The notes: generated by a model from the sequence alone, not told the origin. 25,167 nt of DNA from Chloroflexota bacterium (GCA_030668425.1 DAOUTY010000001.1:1-25167), one strand, 5' to 3'. Shown: positions 6,349 to 11,445, counted from the stretch's first letter. Numbers and translations are program-made.

Positions 6349-7164
6349 ATGACTGAGATTGTAGGCGTTCGGTTCAAACGAGCAGCGCAGATATATTACT
6401 TCGACCCATCGGATATCGAGCTCAAGATCGGCGATAACGTAGTTGTCGAGACCGTTCGTGGTCTGGCAGTTGGTGCGGTCGTGCTGGCCCCAAAGGAGGT
6501 TGCTCCTGACGAGGCAGGCGAACCCCTGAAGCCCGTCCTGCGCCAAGCGCAGCCCGATGACCTGGAGCGAGTGGCGGAAAGGAAAGAAGAGGAAGGCAAG
6601 GCGCTGACTAAGTGCGAGGAACTGGTGGCAAAGTACCAACTCCCGATGAGCCCTCTGGCCGCAGAGTACAACCTGGACGGTAGCCACCTCACCATGTACT
6701 TCAAATCCGAAAAGAGGGTTGACTTCCGTAATCTGTTACGCGAGCTCTCCAGCACATTAAAAACCCGCGTCGAACTACGCCAGGTAGGTGCTCGCGATGC
6801 TGCTAAGTTAATCGGCGGCATGGGCAGATGTGGATGTACCCTATGTTGCGCAAGCCGCCTGTCCAAGTTTGAACCCATCTCTATGAAAATGGCCAGAGAG
6901 CAGGACCTGCCTCTCAACCCAGCAAATATCTCCGGTGTCTGCGGCCGGCTGCTTTGCTGCCTGGCCTACGAAAACGAGCAATACCGCGTTATGAAGCAGA
7001 AGCTACCCACGCCGGGGAAGAACATCACCACCAAAGTCGGTGAGGCCAAAGTGATCGGGTGTAACCCTCTCAAGGAGACCGTTATCGTCCAGCTCGAGAG
7101 CGAAGCCCGCTTGGAACTGCCTCTCTCAGAAATCGAATTCCCCAGCAGAAATAAGCCACAATAG
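6349..7164 (+). CDS. ricT: PSP1-domain protein (RicT/YaaT family)
   Basis: IVGVRFK....YYFDP, RVDFRNLLRELS...TRVELRQVGARDAAK..GG.G.CG..LCC, ISGVCGRLLCCLAYE. Lies directly after holB, as in Firmicutes. Confidence 0.9.
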   Translation: MTEIVGVRFKRAAQIYYFDPSDIELKIGDNVVVETVRGLAVGAVVLAPKEVAPDEAGEPLKPVLRQAQPDDLERVAERKEEEGKALTKCEELVAKYQLPMSPLAAEYNLDGSHLTMYFKSEKRVDFRNLLRELSSTLKTRVELRQVGARDAAKLIGGMGRCGCTLCCASRLSKFEPISMKMAREQDLPLNPANISGVCGRLLCCLAYENEQYRVMKQKLPTPGKNITTKVGEAKVIGCNPLKETVIVQLESEARLELPLSEIEFPSRNKPQ

Positions 7165-7206
7165 ATATCTTTTTTATCCTGTTGGACGCAAAAGTCCCCT
7201 AAAGTA

Positions 7207-7235
7207 TTGCACTAGTATCTAAGATATGTTATGCT
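7207..7235 (+). promoter_or_regulatory. sigma70-type promoter upstream of the HTH gene
   Basis: TTGCAC (7207-7212), 17 nt, TATGCT (7230-7235) with a TGn extension. Palindrome TATCT-A-AGATA lies in the spacer. Confidence 0.65.
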
Positions 7236-7288
7236 TTCTCTCGCTGACCTTCTCAGGTCAGTGGAAGGGGTGATGTGGACTTCACATT

Positions 7289-7480
7289 ATGGAAACTGAG
7301 TTATCGTCGGTAGATGATATAACCAGGATACTTAAAATCAGCAAAGTCACCGCGCAAAGGTGGTGCCGCGACCGAAGGCTTCCTGCGGCAAAGATTGGAA
7401 AATCGTACCGCATCAGGAAAGACGATCTGGATAGATGGTACGAGGGGAAACTTCTGGATCATACTACAGCTGAGCACTAG
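7289..7480 (+). CDS. small excisionase/BldC-like helix-turn-helix protein (HTH_17-type)
   Basis: L.SVDDITRILKISKVTAQRWCRDRRLPAAKIGKSYRIRKDDLDRWY fits the MerR-like/Xis winged-HTH pattern (V..W.R.G.LPA.K.G...RI...DL..W). Confidence 0.8.
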   Translation: METELSSVDDITRILKISKVTAQRWCRDRRLPAAKIGKSYRIRKDDLDRWYEGKLLDHTTAEH

Positions 7481-7512
7481 GTGCTGTAAGCCAGAAGTGG
7501 CCAAGTGTATTT

Positions 7513-7544
7513 GACCACCACCCAAGCGGGGGGTGGTCTTTTTT
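7513..7544 (+). terminator. intrinsic terminator between the HTH gene and the speD-like gene
   Basis: GACCACC-A-CCC-aagc-GGG-G-GGTGGTC followed immediately by TTTTTT. Confidence 0.8.
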
Positions 7545-7575
7545 GTGCCTCAACTACTGGAAGGGGGTGGGAACA

Positions 7576-7974
7576 ATGCACCTGATCATCGATGGCTACA
7601 GTGGCAATGCCCAGAAAATGCAGGACGTAGACTTCATCTACCAACTCCTCGATACTTATCCCTCGCAGATTGGGATGACAAAGATCTCTCCCCCGCAGGT
7701 TTCCAAATACATCGGCTCCAAACCCGAGGATTGGGGTGTTTCCGGTTTTGTCCTCATCGCGGAGAGCCATATCAGCATCCACACCTTCCCCGAGCGTTCC
7801 TACATCAATATCGATATCTTCTCCTGTAAAGAGTTTGACGCCGAGCAAACTATAAGAGACCTTCAGCAACAATTTGGTTTGGCCGAAATCAGGAGCTATA
7901 TTCTCAGTCGGGGGCTGGAATACTACAACAATCAACAGCCATCTTCGCTGTCAGCCTCCGTGAATAGAAAGTGA
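7576..7974 (+). CDS. speD: SpeD-family (AdoMetDC class 1B-like) pyruvoyl-dependent decarboxylase proenzyme
   Basis: MHLIIDGY..., GVSGFVLIAE^SHISIHTFPE self-cleavage motif, DIFSCK. ATG 7576 follows AAGGGGGTGG. Substrate is not certain (see findings). Confidence 0.85.
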   Translation: MHLIIDGYSGNAQKMQDVDFIYQLLDTYPSQIGMTKISPPQVSKYIGSKPEDWGVSGFVLIAESHISIHTFPERSYINIDIFSCKEFDAEQTIRDLQQQFGLAEIRSYILSRGLEYYNNQQPSSLSASVNRK

Positions 7975-7992
7975 GTCGTCTCACTAGCCAGG

Positions 7993-8880
7993 ATGGATGA
8001 AGTGAGCGATGAGTTTTTTCTCCCCCCAAGGTCTTTCGGTGGTATATCTCCTCTCATTACCACCTTTGATCAAGCAAAGGTGGCAGTTTTACCTGTACCC
8101 TACGACAGCACCACTGAGTACAAAAGCGGCACCAGGGAAGGGCCCCAAGCAATCATCGATGCCTCACGATTCTTAGAGCTTTATGACATTGAGCTAGACC
8201 GAGAAATCAGCGAAGTAGGCATTTATACCCTCTCCGAAGTCCAGCCCCTGATGAGCGGGCCCGAGCCGATGATGGAACGGGTTTATCAAATAACGAGTGA
8301 CTTGCTTGATAAAGGCAAACTCCTGGCGATGTTGGGCGGCGAGCATTCCCTTACTCTGGGCACAGTTAAAGCCCATCGGGAAAGGTACCCCGAACTCTCC
8401 GTGTTACACCTGGATGCTCACGCCGACCTGCGCGATCAATATCAGGGAACGAAATACAGCCACGCCTGCGTAATGCGCCGAGTTTGGGAGATTTGCCCCG
8501 TCGTCCACGTGGGCATTCGTAGCCTCAGTCGGGAGGAACACGAGTTTCTGAGTCAACGCAAAATCGAGCCCTTTTATGCTGAAGCCTCAACCGGTTCAGA
8601 CTTTGTAGCCCGGGTTTCCTCCACCCTTTCACCTCAGGTGTATATCTCGATCGACCTAGATGTACTCGATCCCTCAATCATGTCAGCGGTGGGCACCCCT
8701 GAACCTGGGGGGTTAGGCTGGCAACAAGTGCTGGAGTTGCTGCGTGCGGTAGCCGATAGCAAACAAATCGTTGGCTTTGACATCATGGAACTCTGCCCTC
8801 ATGAGGGGCCGAACGCATGTGCCTTCCTCGCTGCCAAACTGGCCTACAAACTTGTGGGATATGCCACATCAACAAGATGA
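7993..8880 (+). CDS. speB: agmatinase (ureohydrolase family)
   Basis: PYDSTTEYKSGTREGP, GGEHS, DAHADLRD, SIDLDVLDP, GTPEPGG metal-binding motifs. Confidence 0.92.
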   Translation: MDEVSDEFFLPPRSFGGISPLITTFDQAKVAVLPVPYDSTTEYKSGTREGPQAIIDASRFLELYDIELDREISEVGIYTLSEVQPLMSGPEPMMERVYQITSDLLDKGKLLAMLGGEHSLTLGTVKAHRERYPELSVLHLDAHADLRDQYQGTKYSHACVMRRVWEICPVVHVGIRSLSREEHEFLSQRKIEPFYAEASTGSDFVARVSSTLSPQVYISIDLDVLDPSIMSAVGTPEPGGLGWQQVLELLRAVADSKQIVGFDIMELCPHEGPNACAFLAAKLAYKLVGYATSTR

Positions 8881-9117
8881 GCTATCCAAAGGCCCGCATA
8901 ACGTGCCTCAGGCTGCACATGATGGAGATCGTGCAATGTCCTGAATAGGTTCAGCTTTCCCAAGGCAGCTGTACTATTCCCACTGACTCTCTATCGGACT
9001 ATTTTCCTACTGCCAACTACCAGATAGAACTATTGTCCTCTCCCCAGAACGTGCGTTAATGTTTATGTAGTATGCTGCAACAGATTATGCCCCCTACAGA
9101 TGCAAAGGAAACAAGAC

Positions 9118-11445
9118 ATGGCGAAAAGAAATAAGCCGACGCGAGGTAAAACGCGCCCAAACACTGTTCAACCAGCAATAACGCTGCTGGACAGGTTGAG
9201 CGCTTTCGCGGACGCATCCGTGGACGCTTTCATCGTGATCGACGAGAACCTTAACTTTGTGAGTATAAACCCCGCCACGCAAAAGCTGTTCAACCTCTCG
9301 GAAGAAGATGTGGTTGGGAAGAATGTCCTGGATGTTGTGCCCGACATCAAAGAAACCGGAAGATACGACAGGTATCTGAATGTTATCAAATCCGGGGAGC
9401 CGTTCTCTGCTGATAATATCATCGTACACCCAAAGTTTGGAAACAGAACTTTAAACATCAAAGCATTCAAGGTGGGAAGCGAACTGGGAATAATAGCCAG
9501 TGATATCACCGAACTCAAGCAGATGGAAGAGCCATTTCGGGAAAACGAGGAACGCCTCCGCTCCCTATATTCCGCCATGAACGAAGGCGTTTGCCTTCAT
9601 GAGATTATCTATGATGAATCAGGACAAGCAGCAGACTATAGAATCATATATGTCAACCCAGCCTATGAGTCACTTCTCGGCTTAAGCAGAGAAAAGGCCA
9701 TAGGAAGCAAAGCATCGGAACTCTATGGGACAGGCAAACCACCTTACTTGGAACTCTATGCGAAGGTGGCGGATTCAGGAGAACCCCTCTCATTTGAAAC
9801 CTATTTCCCGCAAATAGAAATGCACTTCCTCATCTCCGTTTTCTCCCCCCGCAAAGGGCAGTTCGCAACAGTATTCACCGATGTCACCCGGCACAAGAAG
9901 GCGGTAGAGGCCTTACAAAAGAGTGAGGCACACTACCGCCTGCTCGCCGAAAACGTGCAAGATGTTATCTGGACAATGGATATGGATCTGAGATTTACCT
10001 CTATCAGCCCCTCAGTTGAGCGTTTGCGAGGCTACACCGTTGACGAGGCGATGGCACAGGGCATGGAAGAAGCTTTGACTCCTGCTTCTCTTGAAGTTGC
10101 TTTAAAGGCTTTTGAGGATGAGTTGGCCGTAGAAAAAACGGAGCGCAAGAGTTGGTTCCGGTCTCGGATGCTGGAACTGGAGCAGGCCTGCAAAGATGGC
10201 TCCACAATCTGGACCGAGATGAGAATAACCTTCCTGCGCGATCAAGACGGGCAGCCCGTTGGGATCCTGGGAGTAACTCGCGATATCACCGAACGCAAAA
10301 GGGTAGAGGAGGATTTGCGCCAAAGCGAGCACAACTATAGAGTGTTATTCGAGAGCACAATTGACGGTATAGGCGTCATCGATGCCGAAACTATGAAATT
10401 CGTGCTCGCCAATGACAAAGCGGCGGCGATGTTCGAACTCGATTCCATAGAGGATGCGATCGGGGTCAACCCTCTTGACTTCATCCATCCCGACGATAGA
10501 GATAGGGTCGCCAGGATTATCATAGAAGATATGTTTGAAAAAGACCTGCGTGAGATTATCGAATTTCGGGCGTTCACCAAAGATGGCAGGGAAGTATGGA
10601 TAAGCGCTGTAGGTACAAGAACCGAATACCAGGGTAGATTAGCAGGCCTCGTTTCAGTCAGAGATATCACCGAGCGCAAGAAGGCAGAAGAGGAGAAACA
10701 AAGGATGGAAGAGCAGCTTCAACTCGCCGGCCGTTTGGCTGCAGTTGGTCAACTGGCGGCAGGTGTTGCCCACGAGTTGAACAACCCCCTCAGCGCAGTT
10801 CAAGGGTTCGCCCAATTTCTGACCGAAAGGGACAACCTCGACGAAACCACAAAGAGCGGTGTGGAAACCATCTACAGGGAGGCTCAACGCGCTGCTAAAA
10901 TCACCCGGAATCTCCTTTCCTTCAGCCGTACGTACGCTCCTGAAAAGAGCCTCATTTCGATAAACGAAGTCATTGAGAAAACTCTGGATCTCAACACCCA
11001 CCGTCTACAGGTCAACAACATAGGGTTGTCTGTGAAACTAGAGCCTGGTCTTCTTAAAACCATGGCCGATCCAGACCAAATGCAGCAGGTCTTTGCGAAC
11101 ATTATCAACAATGCAGAGCAGGCTATGTTAGGGGGCCCGGATAGGGGAAAGCTTTATATCAAAACGCAAAAGGTGGGCGACAATATCAGAATAGCTTTTA
11201 CTGACAACGGGCCAGGTGTCTCGGAAGAGAACCTCAAGAAGATATTTGACCCGTTTTTCACGACCAAGGAGGTGGGGAAAGGCACTGGGCTAGGTCTGAG
11301 CATCTGCTATGGCCTCGTCGAGGGTCATGGTGGCCATATATATGCTTACAGCAAGCCTGGCAAGGGTGCAACCTTCACTATCGAGATACCCATCGTATCT
11401 GAAGAGCATCATGTTGCTGAGCAGCCTGACCTGGTCTACAACTAA
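9118..11445 (+). CDS. soluble sensor histidine kinase with four PAS/PAC domains (NtrB-like HisKA + HATPase_c)
   Basis: Four PAS repeats ending in ..DITE/DVTR. H-box AHELNNPL, N-box [30 protein letters not shown]. No transmembrane helix evident. ATG 9118 follows AAAGGA. Confidence 0.93.

Follow-up and report, generated by a model that had tools for sequence, protein, structure and literature searches.

A conserved intrinsic terminator inside an HTH-speD-speB operon of Dehalococcoidia: a candidate attenuator whose stem resembles a Shine-Dalgarno/anti-Shine-Dalgarno helix

In a 25,167-nt stretch of DNA (hereafter the window; contig C173) from a Dehalococcoidia metagenome-assembled genome (1.75 Mb, 90% complete), the gene of a small helix-turn-helix (HTH) protein is followed by a strong, conserved intrinsic terminator and then by two genes of polyamine synthesis. 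The reading favored here, at a probability of roughly 55%, is that positions 7207-8880 are a single transcription unit in which this terminator keeps expression of the two enzymes down relative to that of the HTH protein, control being exerted at the promoter. A preliminary description had placed a terminator/antiterminator switch in this gap. That proposal is partly confirmed: the features observed are real, but the switch mechanism at its center fails. What is new is the operon itself, along with a terminator stem that mimics the helix between a Shine-Dalgarno (SD) sequence and its complement in 16S rRNA, and not a riboswitch. The main elements are as follows.

Up to 7164 (end of the PSP1-domain gene), + strand: nitroreductase, holB and PSP1-domain genes, the upstream neighbors of the HTH gene
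7207-7235, + strand: predicted sigma-70-type promoter, with -35 TTGCAC (7207-7212), a 17-nt spacer and a TG-extended -10 TATGCT (7230-7235)
7289-7480, + strand: HTH_17/excisionase-family protein of 63 aa (Pfam PF12728, TIGR01764)
7513-7544, + strand: intrinsic terminator, GACCACCACCC (7513-7523) and GGGGGGTGGTC (7528-7538) enclosing the loop AAGC, then T6 (7539-7544)
7560-7571, + strand: SD sequence of the speD-like gene, GAAGGGGGTGGG, very strong and nearly invariant in the alignment
7576-7974, + strand: speD-like pyruvoyl decarboxylase proenzyme (Pfam AdoMet_dc, E = 4e-27)
7993-8880, + strand: speB agmatinase (TIGR01230 agmatinase, 242 bits; Pfam Arginase, E = 6.6e-71)

Translation of speB could alternatively begin at an in-frame GTG at 8002. 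Further downstream on the + strand lies a long ORF at 9100-11445, with more ORFs beyond it.

The HTH protein matches the HTH_17 profile PF12728 with E = 2.6e-16 (60.1 bits, cut-off 27) and TIGR01764 with 44.1 bits (cut-off 28.8). A sequence search against the PDB gave no significant match. The structural model (pLDDT 85.9) was matched by Foldseek to BldC (6AMA), mycobacteriophage Xis, lambda Xis, RdfS and RacA, with 6AMA as the top match (probability ~1.0, TM-score 0.67/0.75, rmsd 2.0, 17% identity, E-value 0.05). Judging by this model, the protein shares the BldC/Xis fold, and orthology is not implied. The earlier designation as Xis/BldC-like therefore holds for the fold, on the combined evidence of Pfam and Foldseek, and not for descent. 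The accompanying view that the protein is not a prophage excisionase is borne out, since dozens of genomes have its gene in the same place, with PSP1 on one side and speD on the other, and the neighbors that were checked (nitroreductase, holB and PSP1) are housekeeping genes. Across 29 intact aligned homologues, the HTH protein is 52-90% identical to that of the window, a span that includes clades whose speD-like protein is ~60-70% identical; it is more conserved than the adjoining enzyme. In L008/L122, L011/L016 and L030, the HTH sequence has degenerated with the ORF length kept.

The speD-like protein passes the AdoMetDC equivalog only narrowly (78.1 bits, cut-off 75.65), and a second SpeD paralogue, located beside speE on contig C35, scores 104.5 bits on the same profile. 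Nothing like the HTH-speD terminator occurs at the speD2-speE locus, where the promoter is a plain one. AdoMetDC homologues that have turned into arginine decarboxylases have been described in SpeDA-SpeB gene clusters (PMC10407285), and by analogy the speD-like gene probably encodes an arginine decarboxylase of the SpeDA type that feeds the agmatinase, a substrate assignment that we infer. A pyruvoyl arginine decarboxylase of the PdaD type was not found in the genome. One gene for a PLP-fold decarboxylase is present.

The arrangement was followed through 190 loci with relatives of the speD-like protein, taken from relatives' genomes, GTDB species genomes and metagenomes. The order PSP1-HTH-speD-speB was found in 22 of 30 relatives' loci. 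An HTH gene lies directly upstream of speD in 51 of 53 distinct loci whose speD-like protein is at least 73% identical to that of the window and in 23 of 43 at 64-73% identity, where 8 further HTH genes were picked up by HMM; below 64% identity, it was seen in 4 of 47 loci. This distribution indicates a stable trait of one large clade rather than the remnant of a mobile element. The earlier view of HTH-speD-speB as a conserved unit is upheld, the order being kept at 74 of the 96 distinct loci where the identity of the speD-like protein to that of the window is 64% or more. The gaps between the HTH and speD genes are of two types. In families f4 and f2, only 22-40 nt separate stop from start and no hairpin is present, which is indicative of co-transcription. 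The gap is longer, 84-170 nt, in the family of the window and in several sister clades, and in most cases it contains a hairpin with a T-rich tract behind it, which lies 20-35 nt ahead of the SD. Lineages without the terminator include f4, f2, L012 and L023/L162; in L012, L023/L162 and L123, from a few genera of the window's family, the gap is equally long but has no T-tract terminator. Since several lineages do without it, the terminator is not essential to the operon.

The terminator of the window has a stem of 11 bp, including one A.G mismatch, and a hairpin energy of -17.5 kcal/mol; it was found by consensus scan and is kept in the minimum-free-energy fold. It ranks 8th among the strong hairpin+T5 sites of the 1.75-Mb genome, of which there are only 47 with both strands counted. 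Rho is encoded in this genome, which may account for the sparseness of canonical terminators, and the rarity of such sites together with the presence of Rho argues that the terminator is a deliberate feature. The stems of the other terminators of the genome are unrelated to that at 7513-7544, so it does not belong to a repeat family, and a genome search for ACCACC...GGTGGT followed by a T-run returned no other attenuator-like copy. The whole 161-nt region folds no better than shuffled sequences (z = -0.99). Among relatives, the hairpin with its T-tract is kept in most of 55 distinct long gaps. Clade-specific stems were observed (CCACTCTCCCC/GGGGGGGTGG, GTCCCCTGAGCC/AGCTCAGGGGGT and TCCTGGCAGACT/GGTTTGTCAGGG), and this difference in stem sequence between clades indicates that the terminator structure is maintained. 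In an alignment of 39 distinct sequences of the family, the invariant columns are ACCAC, GTGGT, the T-run and the speD ribosome-binding site, and the stretch from the stop codon to the terminator is the most variable part. A purine-purine mismatch adjoins the stem core in many members. Thus, the terminator is as real and strong as had been described, with -17.5 kcal/mol, a T6 tract and conservation across the window's family and sister clades. Its distance of 31 nt from the speD-like ATG is likewise correct, with the ATG itself at 7576 and not 7577.

The predicted dependence of the enzymes on transcription through this terminator follows from the position of the promoter. The block TATTGCAY-17-TATGCT/TATTAT upstream of the HTH gene is kept in all clades, and its copy at 7207-7235 presumably acts as the operon promoter. 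A simple consensus scan detected no sigma-70-like site within 6800-9300, and it overlooks the promoter at 7207-7235, which matches 7 of 12 consensus positions. The earlier statement that no promoter separates the terminator from speD agrees with the empty scan there and with the T-tract-to-ATG distance of 31 nt. With the sole conserved promoter placed ahead of the HTH gene and none after the terminator, speD and speB would depend on read-through. In L007, L021 and L135, the HTH ORF is truncated or deleted, yet speD is still preceded by the promoter, the leader hairpins and the first codons of that ORF. Survival of the promoter where the HTH ORF has decayed suggests that it serves speD-speB, and this retention provides the strongest argument that the enzymes of the window would be reached only through the terminator. 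The leader between the promoter and the HTH gene is structured.

7243-7262, + strand: 5'-UTR stem-loop GCTGACCT / AGGTCAGT, from RNAalifold, near the predicted 5' end of the transcript
7263-7286, + strand: HTH ribosome-binding site, with the SD GGAAGGGGTGAT at 7263-7274
7274-7278 / 7282-7286, + strand: spacer hairpin TGTGG/TCACA between the SD and the HTH ATG, conserved and with compensatory pairs

For the 5' stem-loop, RNAalifold on 38 sequences predicted 8 pairs, 4 of them with compensatory changes, and for both leader hairpins together such changes were observed in 6 of 16 predicted pairs. The duplex of the HTH SD with the 16S tail amounts to -17.7 kcal/mol. A supposed covariation of the 5'-UTR hairpin with the terminator arm, judged by eye, was inconsistent and was discarded.

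A cell usually requires less of a regulator than of an enzyme. A terminator that favors the regulator is therefore unexpected, except if it acts conditionally or if the HTH protein is an abundant one. According to the attenuator reading, the sigma-70-type promoter at 7207-7235 would drive the structured leader and then the small Xis/BldC-fold HTH_17 gene, and the terminator at 7513-7544 would end most transcripts after that gene. The fraction that reads through would supply the speD-like enzyme, whose ORF comes first and has an exceptionally strong ribosome-binding site, and speB; the two enzymes would together make putrescine from arginine. The attenuator would in this way set the ratio of regulator to enzyme with no RNA sensor involved. 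Conditional control, if any, would reside at the promoter, possibly through autoregulation by the HTH protein, or in general factors that alter termination efficiency. Within this scheme, partial read-through and a regulatory role of the HTH protein are what we infer. The sequence-level marks of an intra-operon terminator were found in silico, namely a G+C-rich hairpin with a U-tract, co-oriented genes and a promoter-less downstream part. Internal intrinsic terminators that set the product ratio of operons have been described (PMC9045158), for example in ABC-importer operons of cellulolytic Clostridia.

What a plain terminator does not call for is the sequence of the stem. Against the 3' tail of the 16S rRNA of this genome, GGAUCACCUCCUUUCU (contig C52), the 3' arm of the terminator pairs with -19.6 kcal/mol and the speD SD with -19.0; the 3' arms of the other 46 terminators reach a mean of -5.1 +/- 2.9 and at best -15.1 kcal/mol. 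The 5' arm, compared by eye, matches GAUCACCUCCU of the 16S tail at 8 of 11 positions. Since the 3' arm pairs with the tail like a real SD and the 5' arm resembles the tail itself, the hairpin amounts to a mimic of the SD/anti-SD helix. The pairing is kept in most clades with differing 3' arms (e.g., GGGGGGTGGTC vs GAAGGTGGTGAT), and sub-clade arms of differing sequence gave -19.3, -17.5, -22.0 and -19.1 kcal/mol; a weak pairing of -7.5 kcal/mol was observed in L061, L185 and L160. The core ACCAC/GTGGT shows no compensatory change in 39 sequences, and its flanks are saturated with change. The invariant core and the mimicry point to apparent sequence-specific selection, which would be needless for a plain terminator. 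The 5' arm is in addition complementary to the speD SD, as had been claimed, through 6 contiguous pairs (CCACCC / GGGTGG); the duplex of -14.7 kcal/mol compares with -7.6 +/- 3.4 for the 5' arms of the 46 other terminators, 4% of which equal it. A second hairpin of the SD/anti-SD-mimic kind lies within the first 90 nt of speB, and bS21 is encoded in the genome.

These observations leave one serious rival, which we consider unlikely: a conditional attenuator built on the mimic, coupling polyamine synthesis to the state of translation. A ribosome component (the 30S subunit or bS21) or a polyamine-dependent stability of the helix would change hairpin formation; equally tentatively, the 5' arm would alternate between two partners, the 3' arm as a decoy and the true speD SD. 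Such a scheme is favored by a 3' arm that outpairs those of all 46 other terminators on the 16S tail, by the persistence of this pairing in most clades despite differing arms, and by a core that is invariant without covariation, which would be the pattern if a second partner existed for each arm. The pairing of the 5' arm with the speD SD at a strength few other terminators attain, the mismatch beside the core in many members and the similar hairpin early in speB are also consistent with it. So is the presence of bS21, since the P6 stem of OLE RNA is an intramolecular SD/ASD mimic bound by this ribosomal protein (PMC12054373). However, binding of such a factor to the window's hairpin is hypothetical and is suggested by that analogy. 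The terminator, with 11 bp and a 4-nt loop, is far more stable and faster-forming than a 6-bp arm-SD pairing over ~40 nt, the mimicry is weak in some clades (those with -7.5 kcal/mol), and the SD-likeness of the stem could be the relic of a duplicated ribosome-binding site. Because of this stability and the possible relic, the mimic reading is kept as the main rival and not as the explanation. Its fullest form, in which the hairpin would be a deliberate copy of the SD/anti-SD helix tuned by 30S subunits, free bS21 or polyamine-dependent helix stability, with a second such helix in speB, is decidedly unlikely. If it were true, read-through into the putrescine genes would reflect either the condition of the translation machinery or the polyamine pool.

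The preliminary description had centered on a different partner for the 5' arm, a hairpin just upstream, and had pointed to another at the HTH stop codon.

7473-7485, + strand: stop-codon hairpin AGCAC-TAG-GTGCT, 5 bp, read from the sequence
7497-7518, + strand: candidate antiterminator, GTGGCCAA (7497-7504) and TTGACCAC (7511-7518), 7/8 pairs

Both hairpins are present in the window. The one straddling the HTH stop codon is exactly as described, but relatives have a 3-4 bp version only and a function for it is not supported. The competing hairpin does form 7 of 8 pairs; its role in a conserved antiterminator switch does not stand, since the pairing equals that of shuffled sequences and is missing in most relatives, occurring in the closest kin of the window only. 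As the measure, the free-energy gain from pairing of the 5' arm with everything upstream was compared with that for shuffled upstream sequence, and it was no better than in the shuffles either for the window (z = -0.12) or over 55 sequences (mean z = +0.15). In the two largest sub-clades, the gain is ~0 kcal/mol, with less complementarity than in shuffles, because the upstream sequence is A-rich; such non-complementary sequence is what would be expected for an unobstructed terminator. RNAalifold on the 39 sequences retained five pairs of the terminator core and no other shared structure. A conserved terminator with an unconserved antiterminator had been named beforehand as the pattern that speaks against the switch, and this is what both RNAalifold and the shuffles yielded. 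A weak, lineage-specific antiterminator effect is conceivable.

The form that such an effect might take is translation-coupled antitermination confined to the window's genus, which is very unlikely. A ribosome on the HTH stop codon would melt the stop-codon hairpin and free GTGGCCAA to pair with the 5' arm. With the stop codon and 12 nt masked as if by a ribosome, the window and L002, L006 and L016 do outpair shuffles (z = -1.7 to -2.3), with gains of -5.5 to -10.7 kcal/mol. However, z fell below -1.64 in just these 4 of 55 sequences, the mean being +0.12, and the pairing partners vary among the responding sequences. The window's gain of -6.4 kcal/mol is opposed by -17.5 for the terminator, and the effect is missing from the clades with the best-kept terminator.

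A speD-speB promoter that went unrecognised at the end of the HTH gene or within the terminator, so that the terminator simply ends the HTH (and holB-PSP1) transcripts, is highly improbable. It draws on the fact that promoters of Dehalococcoidia are poorly known and that the consensus scan overlooked even the conserved HTH promoter. The sequence between stop codon and terminator is nevertheless the least conserved part of the region, and only 20-35 nt lie between T-tract and SD. Lineages without an HTH ORF retain the upstream promoter and leader, and the distance between the HTH gene and speD is 22-40 nt in both f4 and f2.

A riboswitch for agmatine, a polyamine or SAM on a terminator/antiterminator platform, suggested by a terminator immediately before a metabolic gene and by the alternative small hairpins of the window, can be given hardly any credence, as Rfam is empty, the ~30 nt before the terminator are variable, the terminator core is the sole conserved structure in RNAalifold and the antiterminator is unconserved. 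The Rfam search, with an E limit of 10 on the window and of 1 on 29 loci from relatives, gave no relevant match; the hits were isrD (E = 6.5), which reflects nothing but the shape of the terminator, and a single weak, unrelated one to leuA-Halobacteria. The earlier remark that no riboswitch pattern was recognised is in accord with this lack of a relevant match, and the ligand-controlled read-through once proposed is not supported, since ~30 poorly conserved nt between stop codon and terminator leave no room for a conserved aptamer. No conserved sensor, be it an aptamer, a leader peptide or protein-binding repeats, was found in the HTH-speD gap.

Further candidate elements of the gap were tried and rejected. 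An outer helix around the terminator (CTAGA...TCTAG in one sub-clade) and a hairpin between the T-run and the SD covary by eye in some sequences, break in L130, L139, L144 and L148 and are dropped by RNAalifold. An upstream ORF starting from the NTG after the T-run and using the SD-like 3' arm varies in frame, length and peptide; the NTG itself is kept in 37 of 39 sequences, with ORF lengths, by eye, from 2 to ~100 codons.

Overall, the analysis defines a conserved operon with a promoter, a leader, a candidate regulator, an internal terminator, a probable arginine decarboxylase of the SpeD family and an agmatinase; a literature search found nothing on the control of polyamine synthesis in Dehalococcoidia. 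It removes a false riboswitch lead, and the oddity that is left is a terminator stem imitating the helix of mRNA and 16S rRNA. Polyamines act mainly on ribosomes and RNA, which makes a link between ribosomes and polyamines attractive; if the mimicry is functional, polyamine supply would be tied to ribosome status. The operon would then be governed by an attenuator that has no sensor or senses the ribosome, a type without earlier description.

How does this operon compare with known systems? Its HTH protein has the fold of BldC, Xis, RdfS and RacA, small MerR-like winged-helix DNA-binding proteins, but is only 14-23% identical to them in sequence; unlike Xis, it is encoded at a fixed chromosomal position before polyamine genes, with no integrase among the checked neighbors. 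As in the SpeDA-SpeB clusters (PMC10407285), a SpeD homologue stands beside an agmatinase and a second SpeD occurs with SpeE elsewhere; the text of that paper mentions neither Dehalococcoidia nor a helix-turn-helix protein, and the activity of the window's enzyme is a prediction. Terminator/antiterminator attenuators and transcriptional riboswitches share with the window a strong terminator just upstream of promoterless biosynthetic genes, but the window has no conserved antiterminator, aptamer, leader peptide or protein-binding repeat. The internal terminators of Clostridia (PMC9045158) are alike in having a hairpin and U-tract between co-oriented genes with no promoter after it, and in favoring the first gene over later ones. 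Unlike that case, the window would favor a small DNA-binding protein and attenuate enzymes, with read-through being a prediction, and its stem core is invariant in sequence and mimics the SD/anti-SD helix. In this last respect it resembles the P6 stem of OLE RNA, whose two strands are copies of the 16S 3' tail and of an SD, respectively. OLE is a large non-coding RNA of Bacillota for which binding was shown by experiment (PMC12054373), whereas the helix of the window is the stem of a terminator inside an mRNA.

A candidate structured element was noted upstream of the HTH gene in seven loci of family f4:
Loci L009, L019, L022, L127, L141, L149 and L154, roughly 150 nt ahead of the HTH start: long leader with the same promoter.
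This leader is closed by a helix, AGTTGC/GCAACT, in which compensatory changes are present, and the three hairpins inside the helix were also observed to covary. An SD-like GGGAGGTG is located 5' of the closing helix, and the interval between the HTH gene and speD lacks a terminator at these loci. A search of Rfam gave no match for the long leader of the f4 loci. It is a candidate new structured leader of the HTH-speD operon.

Five other loci (L008, L122, L011, L016 and L030) carry a degenerate HTH sequence with altered recognition helix and wing. Despite this degeneration, all five retain an ORF of 62-63 codons, the promoter and the leader, and the terminator is also retained, with the exception of L030. 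This pattern could reflect either relaxed selection or a cis role of the ORF's translation.

Short ORFs were found upstream of speD at a few loci:
L064/L181 (between the HTH gene and speD), and L180 and L189 (loci without an HTH gene), 13-57 nt ahead of speD: short ORFs.
The encoded peptides are MARRWFCATIAK, MGRRWFIPAWT and MDRRWFITAWT, and their RRW portion corresponds to an SD-like AGGAGGTGG. These ORFs may encode a leader peptide that contains two rare Arg codons and precedes a probable arginine decarboxylase; alternatively, they may represent a chance ATG ahead of an SD-like motif. In relatives, the frame upstream of speD is shut by an in-frame TAG (within CTAGAAGG), for which the window has TGG (7543-7575), and a TTG at 7543 is therefore in frame with speD. 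The SD-like terminator arm lies ahead of this TTG, and initiation there could add 11 residues to speD, an extension that is probably of no consequence.

Two hairpins were located further downstream in the window:
7969-7984: hairpin AGTGAG-TCGT-CTCACT (6 bp, no mismatch), which overlaps the stop codon of speD and lies 9 nt ahead of the speB start.
8060-8083: hairpin CCACCTTTG-ATCAAG-CAAAGGTGG within speB, at approximately codons 23-31.
The speB-internal hairpin extends to 14 bp in relatives, in which the 5' arm, GATCACCACCTTCG, is a near-copy of the 16S tail and the 3' arm, CGAAGGTGGTGATC, encodes a conserved AKVVI. Among 61 distinct HTH-clade sequences, 77% of cells pair, compared with 36-50% for shifted registers, and the site ranks as the strongest SD-like site of the entire speB ORF in 32% of these sequences, versus 5% outside the clade. 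The window's own copy is weakly SD-like (−8.1 kcal/mol).

The window's own genome (G000) also encodes a second speD paralogue:
Contig C35, 182-1462 (locus L191): speD paralogue lying immediately 5' of speE.
The promoter here is of a plain TATAAT type, and the locus has neither an HTH gene nor a terminator. It is the canonical AdoMetDC-spermidine synthase pair.
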